Assembly (NCBI GenBank): GCA_951813535.1 | Contig: OX638345.1 | Location: forward strand, 2,899,477-2,963,476 | From: an uncultured Dehalococcoidia bacterium | GTDB lineage: Bacteria; Chloroflexota; Dehalococcoidia; Lucifugimonadales; UBA3495 | Length of the DNA stretch: 64,000 nt | Reading direction: 5' to 3' | Shown here: piece after piece, positions 18,603 through 26,445 of the stretch | How the letters are laid out: the number at the start of each line of letters is the position of its first letter | How positions within the stretch are numbered: the first letter of the stretch is position 1 | The notes under the pieces: generated by a model | Database searches by the model: none | What the model was told of the DNA's origin: nothing | What the model saw: only the letters and a program-made list of their open reading frames with translations | Program-made: the position numbers and the translations under genes

Positions 18603-19034
18603 TCACTCAGATTGCTCATGGGTGGGAGCCGGGGTGACGGGACCGGTTTCGATTTCCGTTTCATTAACCACGCGGCGAAGAACGTCGTTGATGCGAGCCC
18701 TCCAATCCCCGCCCTTGCGGCGGAAGTGCGTAACGACATCCTGGTCAAGGCTGAGCTCTACGTTCACACGGTTCTGGCCGTTGGTTCGGGCCGCGAGGTA
18801 TGCATTGACCAGGTCAGGGTCGACTTCGATCGCCGGACGCGCCTGGGCGAATTCTGCTTCGATAGGCACCCAACAGTCAGGGTCGGTTGCGATGATAACG
18901 TGGATGGCGACTTGCTCGCCGTAAATGGCCGTGACTTCGGAGAATGTCTTGCCGGCGATTTCATCATAGGGGGGCAATGCGGCGAATTCTTCGGGAGTAA
19001 GGCCGCTGGGTTCATAGCCTTCAGCCATATTCAT
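18603..19034 (-). CDS. brnA: BrnA-type antitoxin (DUF4415) with extended N-terminus
   Basis: C-terminal VNVELSLDQDVVTHFRRKGGDWRARINDVLRRVV matches the DUF4415/BrnA signature (..RLD.DV..WF...G.GYQTRIN..LR). Overlaps brnT by 14 nt. Confidence 0.7.
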   Translation of the reverse strand: MNMAEGYEPSGLTPEEFAALPPYDEIAGKTFSEVTAIYGEQVAIHVIIATDPDCWVPIEAEFAQARPAIEVDPDLVNAYLAARTNGQNRVNVELSLDQDVVTHFRRKGGDWRARINDVLRRVVNETEIETGPVTPAPTHEQSE

Positions 19035-19371: not shown

Positions 19372-20586
19372 TCAGCCAGGCACTTCGTCGTAATGGTGGA
19401 AGGTGCCGATGACGTTGGCCTCGTACATGGCCTGGACTTCGTCCTCAGTATAGTCAAGGATGCCGGTCAGCACGTCTTCGTTGTGCTCGCCCACCTGGGG
19501 AGTGGTTCCGACGACGGCGGGGGTGCGGCTGAAGTGCCAGAAGTCGCCGGAGACGGCGATGGTGCCGGCCAGGAAGTCGTCGACCTCGACCATGGCGCGC
19601 CGCTCCCACGGATGCGGATCGGCGGCGGCCTGGGCGATGGTGTTGACCGGAGCCGCGACCACGTCGTGGTGGGTGAAGTGCGCGATGGCTTCGTGCATGG
19701 TCATGTCGGCCATCAGATCGCGCATGGCCTGGTTGACCAGTTCGCCGTTCGCTCCGCGCTCGTGGCGGGTGGTGAACCGAGGGTCTTCCAGCCACTCGGG
19801 CTTGCCCAGGGCGTTGCAGACGCGGTGCCAGTGGTGCTGGTCGCCGGCGGAAATGAGCACCCAGCCGTCCTTGCACGGATACGTGCCGGACGGGGGCGCC
19901 GCCGACTCGCCGCGCCTGGGCTCGATGCCGGCGCCGTGGTAGGCGGTGATGGGGATTTCGGTATAGCTGTAGCCGGTGTCGGCGAGGCAGGCGTCGATGG
20001 TCTGACCAACGCCGGAACTCTCGCGCTCGTGCAGAGCGGCGAGGGTGCCGATGGCGGCATGGAGCGCCGTGGTACGGTCAATGATGGGCACGCCGGCGCG
20101 GATGGGTGGCATCCCCTCTTCTCCGGTGACCATCGCGATACCGGACATGGTCTGACCGATAGGGTCGTATCCGATCTGCTCGCGGTAGGGCCCGAACTGC
20201 CCGTAGGCCGAGACGTTGACCATGATGATGCGCGGGTTCAGCTCGTAGAGCACGTCGTAGCCGAAGCCCATAGTATCAATGGTGCCGGGCCGGAAGTTTT
20301 GAAGCAGCACGTCAGAGACCTGGACCAGCTTGCGGAGGACTTCCTTGCCACCTTCTTTGCGGAGATCGATGCTGAGGCTCTTCTTGCCACTGTTGTACTG
20401 GACCCAGTAGGCGGACTGCTTGCGGACCCAGGGAGCGTGGTAGCGAGTTTCCTCGCCACCGAGGCGCTCAACCTTGATGACTTCGGCGCCCAAACGGGCC
20501 AGTACCTGGGCGCAGCGGGGGCCGGCCTGGTGCCGACCGAGGTCAATGACGCGTATCCCGTCCAGAGGGCCTTTAGCTTCTGGCAT
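19372..20586 (-). CDS. CaiB/BaiF family (class III) CoA-transferase
   Basis: N-terminal PLDGIRVIDLGRHQAGPRCAQVLARLGAEVIKVE signature. 404 aa. Confidence 0.85.
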   Translation of the reverse strand: MPEAKGPLDGIRVIDLGRHQAGPRCAQVLARLGAEVIKVERLGGEETRYHAPWVRKQSAYWVQYNSGKKSLSIDLRKEGGKEVLRKLVQVSDVLLQNFRPGTIDTMGFGYDVLYELNPRIIMVNVSAYGQFGPYREQIGYDPIGQTMSGIAMVTGEEGMPPIRAGVPIIDRTTALHAAIGTLAALHERESSGVGQTIDACLADTGYSYTEIPITAYHGAGIEPRRGESAAPPSGTYPCKDGWVLISAGDQHHWHRVCNALGKPEWLEDPRFTTRHERGANGELVNQAMRDLMADMTMHEAIAHFTHHDVVAAPVNTIAQAAADPHPWERRAMVEVDDFLAGTIAVSGDFWHFSRTPAVVGTTPQVGEHNEDVLTGILDYTEDEVQAMYEANVIGTFHHYDEVPG

Positions 20587-20677
20587 AACAGATTCTCCTC
20601 AATCGAATGCGTAAACCGGGGTTACGAATGAAGTTCCGCCATTCTACGCCGGCAGGCTTTATTGGGCAAGCGAGCAG

Positions 20678-20687
20678 GTGGCTAACG
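20678..20687. repeat. target-site duplication (left copy) GTGGCTAACG
   Basis: An identical 10-mer directly abuts both IS ends (20678..20687 and 21918..21927). Confidence 0.85.
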
Positions 20688-21917
20688 CAGGGCAATCGCA
20701 TTTCACAGGGATAGGACTTTGAGCAGGTAATCGAAGTCCCATCCGGCTTTTTTGCGTTTGGCCTTGATGCCGACTTTGGCGGTGCGTTCCTGCTTGAGCA
20801 GGTTCAGTGCCAAGTGCCTGATCACTGCCAGGTTCTGGTCAGCGTGGCCGGTCCTCACTCGGCTGTGGTCCTCGTCGAAGGCCACGTCCAGCACCCAGTG
20901 CAGGCTGTTCTCGATGCTCCAGTGGCTTCTGGCCGATGCCAGCAGCGTGGCCGCGTCCGCCGGATAGCTGCAGATGTAGTAGCGGGTATCGGTTGGGGCA
21001 TCGGTGGTAGCGTCCCGTCGGTAGCTGACCCGGGCCACCGCGCCCAGGCTGGCCCATTGGCGCTGGGGGTCCACGTAGGTCAGTTCCTCTGGGTCGGTGA
21101 TCGCCCAGCACTCCCGCCGTTCCAGCCGGCCGTGGTCTTTGCCCACCTGTTGGTGGTGGCTGTAAGCCACACCATCCCATCCTACACGCTCACAGCAGGC
21201 GAACAGGTCCTTGATGTTCTGGTGCAACTCTCCCTGGTTGGCCTTCACCGCCAGCAGGTAGTCAGCGCCCCCCTGCACCACCTGCTGGGCGATGTTCCTC
21301 TGGCAGCCCATGGCGTCTATCGTCACCAGGCAACCCTTCAGTTCCAACACCTTGAGCAGTTCCGGTATCGCCGTGATCTCGTTGGAATGGGCCTCGGTGC
21401 GGGTCTGTCCCAACACCATCCGGTTCTCGGTGGCCCACGCGCTGACCATATGCAGCGCACCTCGGCCGTTGGCCCGGTCATGGCAACCCCGCAGGGTCTT
21501 GCCATCTATCGCCACCACCTCACCCTGGGCCAGTTCACTCACCGAGCGTACCCAGTCCATGAAACAGGCCGAAAACTGCTCCGGGTCCAGCAGACCAAAC
21601 ACCCGACCAAAGGTGTCGTGGGAGGGTATGCCGTTTGGCAACTGCAAGAAGCGGCGGAACCAATCCTCCTTGGCTTTACCGAACTCCTCAATCTCCACCC
21701 AGTTGTCGGCGCAACAGATCACCGCGCAAAGAGTGATGACGATGATGTCCAGCAACTCATGCCTTTTGGCATGTCCGGTTCTCGGGTCTTCCAGCATTCC
21801 AAACCGTTCGGCAATCGAAAGCGGTACATTGTCCATCTCCACCACGCACCTCAGACAATCAGATCGTGGCAACACTTTAGCCCGATTTTTAGAATAATCT
21901 GAAATGCGATTGCCCTG
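20688..21917 (-). mobile_element. ISAs1-family insertion sequence, apparently intact (1230 bp)
   Basis: Perfect 18-bp terminal inverted repeats: CAGGGCAATCGCATTTCA (20688..20705) and its reverse complement (21900..21917). Contains a single transposase ORF and is flanked by a 10-bp direct repeat. Confidence 0.85.
20703..21836 (-). CDS. ISAs1 family transposase (H-repeat-associated type)
   Basis: N-terminus MDNVPLSIAERFGMLEDPRTGHAKRHELLDIIVITLCAVICCADNWVEIEEFG is the DDE_Tnp_1-associated signature, followed by AIDGKTLRG...ITIDAMGCQ...HWSIENSLHWVLDVAFDED. The listed ORF extends to 21875, but ATG 21836 fits family N-termini better. Confidence 0.85.
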   Translation of the reverse strand: MDNVPLSIAERFGMLEDPRTGHAKRHELLDIIVITLCAVICCADNWVEIEEFGKAKEDWFRRFLQLPNGIPSHDTFGRVFGLLDPEQFSACFMDWVRSVSELAQGEVVAIDGKTLRGCHDRANGRGALHMVSAWATENRMVLGQTRTEAHSNEITAIPELLKVLELKGCLVTIDAMGCQRNIAQQVVQGGADYLLAVKANQGELHQNIKDLFACCERVGWDGVAYSHHQQVGKDHGRLERRECWAITDPEELTYVDPQRQWASLGAVARVSYRRDATTDAPTDTRYYICSYPADAATLLASARSHWSIENSLHWVLDVAFDEDHSRVRTGHADQNLAVIRHLALNLLKQERTAKVGIKAKRKKAGWDFDYLLKVLSL

Positions 21918-21927
21918 GTGGCTAACG
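21918..21927. repeat. target-site duplication (right copy) GTGGCTAACG
   Basis: See the left copy. Confidence 0.85.
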
Positions 21928-22063
21928 GTACTGATGGTTGGACTACCATCGGGGAGCGCCAGGGCGGGTGAGCACGAGGATTCGTGGAGGACAGAACGAT
22001 CCCGAGTGAACCCACAGGCGCGTCGGGGAGGCTGGATCGTGCATGTAACAAAATTGAAACGTT

Positions 22064-22136
22064 TTCACAATTTGTTCACTAATATCGGGCCTGTTTTCAC
22101 TTGCTTTTCACAGTTGGTTGCTACGCTGTGTTCACA
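22064..22136 (+). promoter_or_regulatory. array A of five phased TTCAC(A/T) direct repeats
   Basis: TTCAC starts at 22064, 22075, 22096, 22107 and 22131, all in the same orientation, with spacings of 11, 21, 11 and 24 nt. It sits about 95 nt upstream of a small ORF with an AAGGAG RBS. Confidence 0.6.
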
Positions 22137-22229
22137 GATGCGAACGAGGCCAAGCTGGGTTGGCAACACCGAAACGGGAAGCCTCCCCGACCGTCCGCAG
22201 AAAAATCCACACAAGGAGACGACCGCATC

Positions 22230-22349
22230 ATGGGCGCAGCGAAAATCAAAATCGGCAGACTCACCTGGAAGGAATTCGGAATGGTCGCAGTGGCCGGCGC
22301 CTTGCCCGTTGCCGTCCTGGGGCCGGCGCTGATGATCATTGCGCAGTGA
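22230..22349 (+). CDS. 39-aa single-TM peptide (hypothetical)
   Basis: ATG 22230 has AAGGAG 11 nt upstream. Product is MGAAKIKIGRLTWKEFGMVAVAGALPVAVLGPALMIIAQ, a basic N-terminus plus one hydrophobic helix. In frame with the tail of listed ORF 22101..22349. Confidence 0.45.
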   Translation: MGAAKIKIGRLTWKEFGMVAVAGALPVAVLGPALMIIAQ

Positions 22350-23149
22350 CAACAACGACGCGGCGCGACACCAGGAGGGACATCGTCAAATAGCGGTGGA
22401 AGAGGTCCAGATCGGATCAGAAACCATGTCAAACCGGTGGCTCTGCAGGCGCCATAATTCGCCAGGAACAGGGTCTACCATACACCAGCGACGGGCGTGA
22501 ATAAGCGCAGCAGCATCAACACAAGCCAAGTGCTCCGAAACACATAGCGACGGGGCGGGGATAATCAAACAATTCGCATAGGCGCGCCGCAACTGGGGCC
22601 AGTGGGTGATAATGCTCGCTGGCCTCTTCTTCTGTCTTGGAAACCCGAGTATCTCTGCCAAGCCATGGCGAGCCTGGCGTCGTGGAGGTAAGGGCGTACG
22701 CTTTCGAGAACAAGACCGAAATCAGTGCCAGTCAACCCGTACGTCGGCAATGCAACGGGCCGGAGGATACGACGACCTCCGGCCTACCTGCCGGTCGGAT
22801 CCTCCAAGATGAAAAATACGCTGTGCATCCGGCCGCGACCTCCGTGCGAATATCCGCGGCCCGAGGCCGAGAGGTGCGGCGCTCCCCTTCATCCCCGCCG
22901 CGCTGACCAAGTCTGCTCTCCCGTCGGGATTGCCGAGTTTCGCTTGCAATGACAGTTCGAATTCAATGGGTACGGATATGCGTACTTTCGGCGGCAGAGC
23001 CCGGCAGCGTCGCGGACCGCAATGGAGCGGGGCCCAACTATGGGGTCGGAATGTGCGAGTCCAACGTGTCGAACGTTCGTCTTTTTTGCCAGCCAAGACG
23101 CGTGGGCTGACACCATTCTCCAGAGAAACAAGCGCAGTAAATGGGGCAG

Positions 23150-23219
23150 TTCACGTCCCGCAATCGGCCTTTCACGTTATGTTCATACATTTACGCCTGA
23201 TTTTCACTCAGTTTTCACA
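23150..23219 (+). promoter_or_regulatory. array B of five phased TTCAC/TTCAT direct repeats (paralog of array A)
   Basis: Motif starts at 23150, 23171, 23182 (TTCAT), 23203 and 23214, with spacings of 21, 11, 21 and 11 nt. It aligns without indels to array A from the first pair through TTTTCACARTTGRTTGMTAC. Confidence 0.6.
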
Positions 23220-23561
23220 ATTGATTGATACCATCAATATGTGGACGGGGACGAGGCAAGGGTTCAGTCAGGCGGGTGAGTGCGGTATCGCCGAGCCTCG
23301 TCCATTTTCCCAAACGCGGGACTAGCTACCTTCGCGACGATCCTCACCAGCAATTACTGAACGTCAACCCGAGCCGACAGAGGCACGCACACACGGCAAT
23401 GGCCATCCGAGCAGCAGCGCCGCAGCATGATCTCGCCACCACTCGAACGGGCGAAAACTCTTGCAGAACCAGGCAATATCAACAAACGTGAAATACACGA
23501 TTCATACAAGTGTCATTGGGAACGCCACCAGCCTGGCATCATAATTCATCGAGGAGGAACC

Positions 23562-23858
23562 ATGTTTGCAGCGAATGCGCATAAGGGAAGACCGAGAGCG
23601 CCGGTGCCCAGAGGACGCAAGGGGCTTTGGGTGTTGGCGCTGGCCGCGATTGTATTGGTCGCCCTGATGGGCCTGATGATGGCATCAGCAGACCAGACCC
23701 CCTACGGGGCGACGCAAGTATGGTCTGCCGAACCCACAGGAGCGGTCAACACCGAAACATCATCCATGTCCGTGAGTCACCTCATCGGCGGCCACCCTTA
23801 CGGCCAGGATGCGGGAAGCCTTCCGGCGGCTACGCTCATACACGTGGGAGCGCAGTGA
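23562..23858 (+). CDS. 98-aa signal-anchored small protein (hypothetical)
   Basis: ATG 23562 has GAGGAGG 5 nt upstream. Product MFAANAHKGRPRAPVPRGRKGLWVLALAAIVLVALMGLMMA... has a basic N-terminus, one TM helix and a polar tail. In frame with listed ORF 23427..23858. Confidence 0.55.
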   Translation: MFAANAHKGRPRAPVPRGRKGLWVLALAAIVLVALMGLMMASADQTPYGATQVWSAEPTGAVNTETSSMSVSHLIGGHPYGQDAGSLPAATLIHVGAQ

Positions 23859-24317
23859 GGCATCGCCGAATGGATCGTACCGGCGACCGTAAGTTGGCAT
23901 CGCTCCACAGGAGGTGCGCGGCAATATCCACTCAATTCGACCTGAATCACCAAGCCGGAGCCAATAACTTTCGAGGGTTCAATCGGATCTACGGCGGGCT
24001 TTGCCCAGGCAACACACGCCGGTTTGGAGAGAGGGGTGCTAAGCGGACCGACGGCATGGCCATATTGGCGGAGACAATAACTCCTCTTCAGGCCTGAGGT
24101 CCGTGGCGTCGCAAGACGCAGCCGCAAATTGCCATTCGAATTCGGCGCATAAGCCGACCGGGGCCAGCGGGCAATGACGCTCGTTGGCCCCATTGCTTGT
24201 CGAAAGTCGTTACCGGCACGGTGGACCCGGCGGCACGGCGACCGGCGTCGGGCCGTGCTCGATTGCGGCGCCAATACCCGTTTGGGACGAGGCGCAAAGG
24301 ACGAAGCGGAAAACGGG

Positions 24318-25490
24318 CTAACGGTGCCGAGCTCGGGGGTGTTCCATTTGCGACGCCCTTTCCGCCGTCACACTGACGAACCGCTCGGGACGGTATGGGC
24401 CGAGCACCGCGTCGGCACGGGCGCCGTCGCAGATCTCCAGAGCAGCCAGTTGGCTCAACGCCGGCGCGAGCGTGACGCCGCTGTGGGTGAGGGCGACGTA
24501 GAGATTGGAGGCTTCTCGGGCAAAGCCCATGACCGGGTAGCCGTCCAGCGGCATGGGTCTCCAGCCAACGGGCACGGGCACGGCCGCGGCCCCTTTCAAT
24601 CCAGGCAGGTGCTGGCACGCCCTGGCCAGAAGGTCATCGGCGTGGGCCTGGCTGTCGTCTTCGGCGAGGCTTTCCTGATCGCCCTCGCCGATCATGAGGC
24701 GACCGTCCGGACACTGCCGCAGGTGAATCTCGCGGCGGCCGTCTTCCAGTGGAGGGGCGTACACGATTGGTACGTGGTGCAGCAGAGGCGGCATCGGGCT
24801 GGTGCGAATAACGACGCCGGGGCTCTCGGCCTGTGGCACGTGGACGCCGGCCATAGCTGCCACGGCCGTGGTGGCAGTGCCGGCAGCGACGACCACGACG
24901 TCGGCGTCGATGTCGCCGTTGGTAGTCTGGACCGCGCTGACGCGATCCTGGGAGTCTTTGCGCAGCCCCGTGACTTCCACACCGGTAACGACAGAGGCTT
25001 CCAACTCGCGCAGCCGGTTGAGGCAGGCGCCAACCACCATCTGCGGTTCGACTTGCCCTTCGTTTTCGCTGTATTCCGCGGCGGCTACCGGGCCGATGCG
25101 CAGGGCCGGTTCCAGTTCCTGGAGTTCCTCGCGGGAGACCAGGCGGGTGGGATAGCCCCAGGATTGGAGTTGCTGCACCCGGGCGACCAGAGCCTGGGCG
25201 GCATCCGGGTCGGATTCCCAGGACACCTTGCCACCCCAGCGCAGGTCCACGTCTTCGCCCAGGGCTTGGGCGAACCGTGGCCACATCTCCAGCGAGCGGC
25301 GGTTGAGGTTGTGGTAGCCGACCGGTTCCTTGGCGCCAGCGTTGATCCAGGCGAAGCTGTGGCTGGAGGCCCCACCGCCGGGTTGGCCCCGGTCAATGAT
25401 CGTGACGCGGATGCCCCGGGAGGCCACGCGCCAGGCGATGGAAGCTCCAACGATGCCGGCGCCGATGACTACAACGTGTCTTGCGTTCAT
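24318..25490 (-). CDS. FAD-dependent oxidoreductase (DAO/glycine-sarcosine oxidase-like)
   Basis: N-terminal HVVVIGAGIVGASIAWRVASRG dinucleotide fold. ATG 25490 lies 1 nt after the MoxR stop. Confidence 0.8.
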   Translation of the reverse strand: MNARHVVVIGAGIVGASIAWRVASRGIRVTIIDRGQPGGGASSHSFAWINAGAKEPVGYHNLNRRSLEMWPRFAQALGEDVDLRWGGKVSWESDPDAAQALVARVQQLQSWGYPTRLVSREELQELEPALRIGPVAAAEYSENEGQVEPQMVVGACLNRLRELEASVVTGVEVTGLRKDSQDRVSAVQTTNGDIDADVVVVAAGTATTAVAAMAGVHVPQAESPGVVIRTSPMPPLLHHVPIVYAPPLEDGRREIHLRQCPDGRLMIGEGDQESLAEDDSQAHADDLLARACQHLPGLKGAAAVPVPVGWRPMPLDGYPVMGFAREASNLYVALTHSGVTLAPALSQLAALEICDGARADAVLGPYRPERFVSVTAERASQMEHPRARHR

Positions 25491-25491
25491 G

Positions 25492-26445
25492 CTAGCCTCT
25501 GCGTCCGCCGCGCCGAGGGCCGCGGTTACGGGAGCGTTCCAGAAGGGAGCGGGCGGGCTCACCGCGCACGGCTTCGATGTCGTCCTGGTACTTCAGCATG
25601 ATGCCGAGGGTGTCGTCGATGACTTCCGGTTCGAGCTCACGCATGTTCAGTGCCATCAGCGCAGACGTCCAGTCCAGGGTCTCGGAGACTCCCGGGATCT
25701 TGTAGAGCTCGGTTTCCCGCAGTTCCTGGATGAAACCCGTGACCTGCTGGGCCAACTGACGGGGTGCGTCCGGGAGGCGCGCCGTGACGATCTGGAGTTC
25801 CTTCTGGTAGTCGGGGTAATCGACCCAGTAGTACAGGCACCGGCGCTTCAGCGCGTCGTGGACCTCGCGGGTGCGATTGGACGTGATCACGACGACGGGC
25901 GGGAAGGCGGCGTGAAAGGTACCCAGTTCGGGAATCGTGATCTGGTAGTCGGCGAGAAGCTCCAGGAGGAATCCCTCGAACTCCTCGTCGGAACGGTCCA
26001 GCTCGTCGATGAGGAGCACCGGGGCGCGGTCCCGGCTCTCGTCGATGGCTTCCAGCAACGGGCGCTTGATGAGGAACTGCGGGCCGAAAAGATCAACGCT
26101 TGACGCATCGCCACCGGCAGCGTCGCGCCGGGATTCCATCAGGCGGATTTCGAGCAGCTGACGGGTGTGGTTCCATTCGTAGACCGCGTGGTTGATGTCG
26201 AGGCCCTCGTAGCACTGCAACCGGATCAGGTCGGTGCCCAGGCCCGCGGCGAGTGCCCGGGCGATTTCGGTCTTGCCAACCCCGGCTTCGCCTTCCAGGA
26301 ACAGGGGTCGGCGCAACTTCAGAGCCAGGAAAATGGCGATGGCCAATCCCCGGTCGGTTACGTAGGACTGATCCCGCAGCAGGCTCTGAACGTCTTCCAC
26401 TGAGGCGGGGGCGGGTGATTCGTGCTCGGCGTGCAGGGTAGTCAA
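25492..26445 (-). CDS. MoxR-family AAA+ ATPase
   Basis: Walker A LEGEAGVGKTEIARAL, Walker B LLIDELDR and a MoxR-type C-terminal lid (PGVSETLDW). Confidence 0.85.
   Translation of the reverse strand: MTTLHAEHESPAPASVEDVQSLLRDQSYVTDRGLAIAIFLALKLRRPLFLEGEAGVGKTEIARALAAGLGTDLIRLQCYEGLDINHAVYEWNHTRQLLEIRLMESRRDAAGGDASSVDLFGPQFLIKRPLLEAIDESRDRAPVLLIDELDRSDEEFEGFLLELLADYQITIPELGTFHAAFPPVVVITSNRTREVHDALKRRCLYYWVDYPDYQKELQIVTARLPDAPRQLAQQVTGFIQELRETELYKIPGVSETLDWTSALMALNMRELEPEVIDDTLGIMLKYQDDIEAVRGEPARSLLERSRNRGPRRGGRRG

Follow-up and report, generated by a model that had tools for sequence, protein, structure and literature searches.

What recognizes two phased arrays of TTCAC repeats, and what do they control? 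The arrays lie in a 64,000-nucleotide (nt) stretch of the genome of an uncultured Dehalococcoidia bacterium of the Chloroflexota (GenBank assembly GCA_951813535.1, contig OX638345.1, positions 2,899,477 to 2,963,476), which is called the window here. They had been described in an earlier reading made without database searches (the sequence-only reading), which considered a response regulator of the OmpR/PhoB family and, alternatively, the iterons bound by a replication protein. The two modules are real, conserved and functional-looking, and belong to a fairly ordinary kind of regulatory element: they are probably two paralogous, activator-dependent promoters of the sigma-70 type with OmpR/PhoB-type sites.

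Geometry and conservation of the arrays

The plus-strand starts of TTCAC had been given as 22064, 22075, 22096, 22107 and 22131 in module 1, and as 23150, 23171, 23182 (TTCAT), 23203 and 23214 in module 2; all of them proved to be exact. A single orientation had also been claimed, and the three exact TTCAC-N6-TTCAC matches in the 64 kilobases (kb) all fall in the two modules, on one strand. In both modules the half-sites of a pair are spaced by 11 base pairs (bp), and the two pairs start 32 bp apart, or about three turns of the helix. The full pattern, TTCAC-N6-TTCAY-N16-TTCAC-N6-TTCAC, matches the window only at 22064-22111 and 23171-23218, even at three mismatches. The cores of the modules align ungapped, as had been stated (blastn, 22063-22124 with 23170-23231). 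A shuffle control had been named as a check on the phasing: in 100 dinucleotide-preserving shuffles the mean number of matches was 0.01, and none of the 100 contained two, the number observed. This means that the phasing is no by-product of composition, and the observation stands. The stretch had been called A/T-rich; at about 52-57% G+C, compared with 63% for the window, it is not especially so.

Five repeats per module had been counted. Four of them are conserved in relatives, whereas the copies at 22131 and 23150 are weakly or not conserved. The four form two pairs, called B and C in module 1 and B' and C' in module 2, where C and C' are the proximal ones. In addition, module 1 has a distal pair A, which had been overlooked. 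A position weight matrix was built from 31 distinct pair sites, and its scan over the window found no site beyond the two modules.

Conservation in related genomes had been named as a further check. Relatives were reached through a protein of 98 amino acids (aa) encoded downstream of module 2 (open reading frame (ORF) 23562-23858), for which 26 homologues with 50-71% identity were found. The contigs encoding nine of them were compared; the full syntenic interval is present in seven distinct relatives (L005-L008, L010, L012 and L013) and part of it in L011 and L014. In these seven, all Chloroflexota, both modules are kept at the same syntenic position, in the order coenzyme A (CoA)-transferase, interval, 98-aa gene, oxidoreductase. 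The relatives are well diverged, because their 98-aa orthologues are only 58-70% identical to that of the window. Furthermore, the DNA upstream of module 1 and the inter-unit DNA (22630-23165) cannot be aligned among relatives, so that the conservation of the modules is selective.

Over the 8-10 genomes compared, the half-sites have near-maximal information per column, and the 16-nt spacers that separate the pairs have little; in other words, the half-sites are near-invariant, the spacer lengths are invariant, and the spacer sequences drift. Almost no insertions or deletions occur from pair B through pair C, the -10 element and the following hairpin, despite the differing spacer sequence. In module 1 (8 genomes), pair A is conserved, with TGTAACA-N4-TGTAACA in L012 and TTCAC as the second half-site in L010. 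In pair B, little or no variation is seen in TCACAATT and in the second TCAC; in pair C, TTTTCACT and CACA are near-invariant. Pair C starts 32 bp after pair B in all eight genomes, across a 16-nt spacer of constant length and variable sequence. Likewise, the half-sites of pair C' are invariant in 10 sequences, and this pair starts 32 bp after pair B' in each of the 10. Fixed spacing with free spacer sequence has the look of a protein footprint with fixed geometry.

The same columns bear on whether a dedicated regulator is needed at all. T3-T4 tracts stand in helical phase in the proximal pairs, and TTTTCAC every 11 bp might by itself provide curvature, or an UP element, for a promoter that has only a -10. 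However, the CAC varies no more than the T-tracts do, both pair B' (ATTCACGTTATGTTCATA) and pair B (TCACAATTYG) are near-invariant with no T4 tract, and an UP element would not need four same-orientation copies of one pentamer. Phased T-tracts acting alone are thus considered very unlikely. The iterons of the sequence-only reading share with the modules the same-orientation repeats in helical phase. This alternative has practically no probability left and is effectively refuted: the modules lie on the chromosome, with synteny kept in contigs of several megabases; neither a rep gene nor DnaA boxes nor an AT-rich unwinding element was found nearby; the unit is 5-7 bp rather than 17-22 bp and occurs in only four copies; the G+C content is 52-57%; and the array borders on a -10 and on a hairpin that is transcribed.

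A scan of genome and metagenome contig collections with the pattern TTTCACNNNNNTTTTCACANTTGNTTG gave four chance matches in unrelated A/T-rich DNA. The pattern, derived from the two copies of the window, was too strict: it required TTGNTTG, which the relatives do not conserve.

Anatomy of the proposed promoters and the putative regulator

The sequence-only reading had seen no convincing -10 or -35 element. As for the -35, this stands: there is no TTGACA-like hexamer 16-18 bp upstream of the -10, and the proximal TTCAC pair fills that position. As for the -10, it does not, because a conserved -10-like hexamer follows the last repeat at 9 bp. In module 1 this hexamer (22122-22127) is TACGCT, TAATCT or TATTCT in the 8 genomes, and TG is present upstream in 7 of the 8. 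In module 2 it varies among TACCAT, TATCAT, TAACAT, TAGTAT, TAATAT and TAGGAT (10 sequences), with T1, A2, A5 and T6 invariant; the TG is mostly lacking, and CGn is found in most relatives. T1, A2 and T6 are conserved across both modules, in each of which the last TTCACA lies 9 bp upstream. A consensus scan at both modules found no full sigma-70 promoter, which is expected since such a promoter has no -35. The missing -35 is meaningful, because the promoter of the neighbouring CoA-transferase gene shows that the lineage does use -35/-10 promoters. Reading TTCACA itself as a -35 with a 17-bp spacer was tried and rejected: the hexamer 17 bp downstream is neither conserved nor -10-like, whereas the one 9 bp downstream is.

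From the position of the -10, transcription would start about 7 nt downstream, near 22134-22136 and 23241-23243. In each module the last paired repeat is indeed followed by the shared ACGAGGC at a distance of 37 nt, at 22144 and 23251, as had been reported. It had been taken for a DNA box; it is instead the 5' arm of a conserved, transcribed leader hairpin at the start of the transcript. ACGAGGC is invariant in the orthologues of module 1 and not in those of module 2, so that the two window copies share it partly by coincidence.

Every test at the sequence level is consistent with OmpR/PhoB-type winged-helix sites, namely the head-to-tail 11-bp repeats, the conservation and the geometry relative to the -10. 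The half-site of 5-7 bp is directly repeated with a spacing of 11 bp, far above chance; the cores are conserved, with spacers of fixed length and free sequence; and the proximal site replaces the -35, 9 bp from the predicted -10. This support is comparative and architectural.

The arrangement can be compared with known systems. Dimers in tandem, arranged head-to-tail, recognize repeats of 7 bp separated by a 4-bp spacer (PMC4832192), and the PHO boxes of B. subtilis consist of four stretches resembling TT(A/T/C)ACA at 11-bp periodicity (PMC11870197). Other PHO box motifs are GTTCACC-N4-GTTCACC in S. coelicolor, TCACAGC-N4-TCACAGC in M. tuberculosis and CTGTCAT repeats in E. coli (PMC4832192, PMC4415409, PMC11870197, PMC11825685). 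In cryo-electron microscopy structures of PhoP and GlnR, head-to-tail dimers occupy a and b sites, and the proximal dimer overlaps the -35 and displaces region 4 of sigma; further dimers stack upstream of it (PMC11825685, PMC10235972). PhoP binds as dimers, tetramers and hexamers on a1-b1, a2-b2 and a3-b3, of which a1-b1 overlaps the -35 (PMC11825685). The modules resemble PHO boxes in their head-to-tail 11-bp half-sites, in having two or three dimer sites per promoter with the proximal one overlapping or replacing the -35, and in the TTCAC(A) core, which is contained in or overlaps the Gram-positive PhoP motifs. They differ in their steps: classical PHO boxes and GlnR boxes continue without interruption every 11 bp, whereas the half-sites here start at 0, 11, 32 and 43. 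In addition, small RNAs or small proteins rather than phosphate-scavenging genes lie downstream, and no PHO box has been defined in the host, an uncultured Chloroflexota bacterium.

If the OmpR/PhoB reading holds, a regulator with a winged-helix domain of this type, encoded elsewhere in the genome and most likely a phosphorylated response regulator, would bind as two tandem dimers per promoter. Both pairs would face the same side of the DNA, because their starts are 32 bp apart, about three helical turns. In module 1, a third dimer might also bind at pair A, or else a second regulator related to the first. The bound protein would activate transcription by replacing the -35 contact, and transcription would run straight into the conserved 5' hairpin. 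Activation rather than repression, as well as the family of the regulator, is what we infer from this architecture. The replacement of the -35 by tandem winged-helix dimers is well established; therefore, what the locus offers is a new and well-defined case and a point of entry rather than a new mechanism.

Several observations weigh against the OmpR/PhoB reading. No OmpR/PhoB-type regulator gene was found in the window or in the related loci of about 8 kb. The sequence-only reading had also noted the absence of a nearby regulator, and tblastn with E. coli PhoB and OmpR agreed with it, giving a best E-value of 0.16 in the window. The two pairs of each module are split by an extra helical turn, and in module 1 the register of pair A is off by 8 bp relative to pair B.

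The spacing between the pairs also bears on the family of the protein. From the second half-site of one pair to the first of the next is 21 bp, the period of LytTR-type regulators, which often control small peptide genes; an ORF of 39 aa lies downstream of module 1. AraC/XylS-type monomers, for their part, contact two major grooves about 11 bp apart. A regulator of one of these types, or of an unknown family that binds direct repeats, is nevertheless rather unlikely. The dominant conserved spacing is the 11 bp within pairs of near-identical 5-7-bp half-sites, the pairs being 32 bp apart. LytTR sites are generally 9-bp repeats with a 12-13-bp spacer located upstream of the -35, whereas the proximal pair here is at the -35 position, and AraC-type half-sites are usually two different boxes, in dimer sites 21 bp apart. 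Moreover, the half-site TTCAC, with AC at positions 4-5 as also in GTAAC and GAAAC, is typical of OmpR/PhoB-family sites.

The same sites might instead serve a protein that represses, or has a dual role, by blocking polymerase at extended -10 promoters. The TGn of module 1, found in 7 of the 8 genomes, could let that promoter function in the absence of a -35, the -35 position is covered by the proximal pair, and PhoP activates or represses depending on the layout of its boxes (PMC11825685). However, module 2, mostly without TG and lacking a -35, should be weak unaided, and two phased dimer sites, one upstream of the -35 and one overlapping it, are the usual layout of an activator. Repression is therefore judged unlikely.

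Pair A deserves separate mention. Actinobacterial GlnR boxes have an a site gTnAc, a 6-nt spacer and a b site GaAAC (PMC10235972), occur two or three per promoter, and show cross-talk with PhoP at the upstream box (PMC10235972, PMC11825685). Pair A of module 1 fits this a/b pattern exactly, as a resemblance only, and it lies upstream of other sites of the OmpR-family type, as at amtB (PMC10235972, PMC11825685). Unlike in GlnR-controlled promoters, there is a single box here, shifted by 8 bp from the register of the TTCAC pairs; L010 has TTCAC as its b site, L012 has GTAAC at both sites, and GlnR has been described in actinobacteria, not in Chloroflexota. Pair A may be a variant site for the same regulator as the TTCAC pairs.

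As for the signal, the half-site most resembles the Gram-positive PhoP boxes (GTTCACC, TCACAGC and TT(A/T/C)ACA). This is a weak lead based on resemblance, by which phosphate limitation would be a possible but doubtful signal. The cis-regulatory logic of uncultured Chloroflexota is almost unexplored. The motif is of footprint quality (half-site TTCAC(A/T), pairs at 11 bp, 32 bp between pairs, 9 bp to the -10) and can be scanned across the many complete genomes of the clade, which might reveal the regulon of a response regulator and link it to its regulator by co-occurrence.

Predicted transcription units downstream of the modules

The modules lie in a 2.4-kb stretch (21930-24317) of lower G+C content, in which a codon-position signal is found only in one short gene. 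Its features and those flanking it are listed in Table 1. Two unannotated transcription units are predicted, which standard annotation misses or calls hypothetical; between them they contain a gene for a small RNA or a peptide, two structured RNA domains and a family of 98-aa membrane proteins.

Table 1. Features of the interval and its flanks, in window coordinates (UTR, untranslated region)
Feature	Position	Strand	Remarks
CoA-transferase gene	19372-20586	minus	flanks one side of the interval
CoA-transferase promoter, TTGCCC-17-TAGAAT	about 20634-20662	minus	canonical sigma-70 type; conserved in relatives
ISAs1-family insertion sequence	20688-21917		18-bp inverted ends CAGGGCAATCGCATTTCA; 10-bp target duplication GTGGCTAACG
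ISAs1-family transposase	20703-21875	minus	Pfam DDE_Tnp_1_assoc and DDE_Tnp_1
Module 1 distal pair A, GTAAC-N6-GAAAC	22045-22060	plus	GTAAC-AAAATT-GAAAC; 11-bp spacing
Module 1 pair B, TTCACAATTTGTTCAC	22064-22079	plus	non-random array; conserved in 8 genomes
Module 1 proximal pair C, TTCACTTGCTTTTCACA	22096-22112	plus	at the -35 position
Module 1 extended -10-like element, TGc-TACGCT (TAnnCT)	22119-22127	plus	predicted from sequence
Leader hairpin of transcript 1	22139-22199	plus	contains ACGAGGC; RNAalifold on 6 and 8 sequences
39-aa ORF	22230-22349	plus	Shine-Dalgarno AAGGAGA at 22213-22219; basic N-terminus, then hydrophobic stretch
Structured 3' RNA domain of transcript 1	22360-22590	plus	multibranch fold; no Rfam match
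Intrinsic terminator of transcript 1	22595-22626	plus	14-bp stem, then T-rich tail; helix 12
Module 2 pair B', TTCACGTTATGTTCATA	23171-23187	plus	17 nt almost unchanged in 9 genomes
Module 2 proximal pair C', TTCACTCAGTTTTCACA	23203-23219	plus	at the -35 position
Module 2 -10-like hexamer, TACCAT (TAnnAT)	23229-23234	plus	predicted from sequence
Leader hairpin of transcript 2	23241-23308	plus	10-bp outer stem, conserved branched interior, then U-tract
98-aa membrane-protein gene	23562-23858	plus	Shine-Dalgarno GAGGAGG; single-pass; syntenic in all relatives
Structured 3' UTR of transcript 2	24043-24157	plus	hairpins CGGAG[ACAAUAA]CUCC, GCGUC[..]GACGC, CGGC[GCAUAA]GCCG
Intrinsic terminator of transcript 2	24160-24191	plus	paralogue of 22595-22626
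Flavin adenine dinucleotide (FAD)-dependent oxidoreductase gene (DAO family)	24318-25562	minus	flanks the other side of the interval

Promoter 1, with its start as predicted above, would drive an RNA of about 490 nt containing the 39-aa ORF, a structured domain of 230 nt and a terminator. Helices 1-3 of its leader are 88-94% paired, and 3 pairs show compensatory changes. The 3' domain is closed by a near-invariant 8-bp helix (GCGGCGCG/CGCGCCGC) and has hairpin loops CCAUAAUU and GAAUAA. Over the whole transcript structure, 93.7% of the cells are paired, compared with 37-41% in slid controls. Pairs changed on both sides number 14, compared with 6.1 +/- 2.0 in shuffles, and none of 500 shuffles reached 14. 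As the related sequences number only eight, this covariation is supportive rather than conclusive of the proposed structure. G-U pairs are many in the conserved hairpins, which fits transcription of the plus strand. One helix, in which the Shine-Dalgarno region of unit 1 would pair with the T-run after the terminator, was dropped before the count, as a likely purine/T-run artefact. A search of Rfam 15 gave no match at E-values up to 1 in 21500-24600, and none at the gathering score in 9 related loci.

The six genomes whose translations were checked all carry, at the position of the 39-aa ORF, an in-frame ORF of 35-40 aa; L010 has no ATG. Gene callers report a gene of 35 or 40 aa at this site in L007, L008, L009, L012 and L013. 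Its coding signal is weak (pairwise differences of 0.37/0.36/0.45 by codon position), and the 230-nt domain is more conserved than the ORF. In Pfam and NCBIfam, no family was found for either the 39-aa or the 98-aa protein. It should be mentioned that the 39-aa ORF (22230-22349) and the N-terminus of the 98-aa protein (23562-23700) share in their orthologues the start MIA(T/A)(K/N), a basic stretch and a hydrophobic segment. The 39-aa ORF may be a truncated paralogue left from a duplication of the unit.

This abundance of structured RNA, with its recurring loop motifs, raises the possibility that the repeats act in RNA, that is, that transcription starts upstream and an RNA-binding protein recognizes regularly spaced UUCAC. 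Such a role is highly improbable: nothing that could serve as a promoter is conserved upstream of either module, the repeats lie outside every predicted helix, and the -10-like hexamers and hairpins come after them.

Promoter 2 would drive, likewise from a predicted start, a 65-nt hairpin (23241-23305) with a U-tract. The outer stem of this hairpin has 2 pairs with compensatory changes (9 sequences), and a T-run follows the stem in 8 of the 9. It could be either an attenuator or a small RNA of about 65-70 nt. By read-through, promoter 2 probably also yields the 98-aa membrane-protein gene with a structured 3' UTR. If this gene is read from promoter 2, the hairpin and U-tract must be passed and would therefore act as an attenuator. 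Two features count against such read-through: the U-tract ends the hairpin and conservation is lacking over the next 180 nt or so, and the gene is closely preceded by a weak TTGGGA-18-CATAAT, a candidate for a promoter of its own. The coding signal of the 98-aa gene is clear (differences of 0.27/0.22/0.48 by codon position). AlphaFold2 on the family gave a predicted local distance difference test score (pLDDT) of 58, with only the transmembrane helix, residues 20-43, modelled confidently. In the 3' UTR and terminator, 11 of the 38 predicted pairs show compensatory changes (10 sequences), and the loops are invariant.

Both terminators consist of a G+C-rich hairpin followed by a U-rich tract and are conserved with compensatory changes; in unit 2, the terminator and the sequence immediately preceding it have their homologue at the end of unit 1. 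Since promoter, leader hairpin and terminator are common to both units, a tandem duplication of one whole transcription unit is indicated, and the units would therefore be co-regulated.

The units can be compared with a class that consists of small RNAs of dual function under the control of a regulator, or of mRNAs for small proteins with structured UTRs. The units and this class share a dedicated promoter under regulation, a hairpin at the 5' end, an ORF that is very short, a non-coding part that is long, conserved and structured, and a strong terminator. The difference is that the transcripts predicted here match no Rfam family in sequence or structure.

Four hairpins on the plus strand have AUAA loops: 22452-22467 (CCAUAAUU), 22495-22508 (GAAUAA), 24070-24084 (ACAAUAA) and 24142-24157 (GCAUAA). 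The AUAA is within loops of 6-8 nt, of which it forms the 3' end in three cases out of four, and the loops are invariant or nearly so in 8-10 genomes. When both strands of the window were scanned for 6-7-nt loops ending in AUAA, three of the six matches fell in the 2.4-kb interval. These loops may be a binding motif for an RNA-binding protein. A bolder and rather doubtful proposal is that the units are lineage-specific, duplicated, regulator-controlled structured RNAs, that unit 1 is mainly a non-coding or dual-function RNA of about 490 nt, and that the AUAA loops titrate an RNA-binding protein. Titration of a protein would then be shared with CsrB/RsmZ-type RNAs, from which the loop motif differs. 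If true, this would be an undescribed RNA family tied to the output of two-component signalling in Chloroflexota.

Neighbouring genes and the insertion sequence

An ISAs1-family element lies about 120 bp upstream of module 1, with copies of its target duplication at 20678-20687 and 21918-21927. It is specific to the genome of the window and missing in all seven syntenic relatives; therefore, it is a recent insertion. The element landed just upstream of the CoA-transferase promoter, which serves as an internal control for the appearance of an activator-independent promoter in this lineage.

On the other flank, the DAO-family oxidoreductase and a MoxR-like AAA ATPase are encoded by two abutting or overlapping genes in the window and the other relatives; in L005 (4761-6887) they are called as one fused product of 708 aa. 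Those homologues of the oxidoreductase that bear a name are annotated as metagenome-assembled genomes of Chloroflexota. Just beyond the CoA-transferase gene, most relatives have a BrnT/BrnA toxin-antitoxin pair (for example, L005 402-1092), and the matching position of the window is occupied by an ORF of 143 aa (18603-19034).

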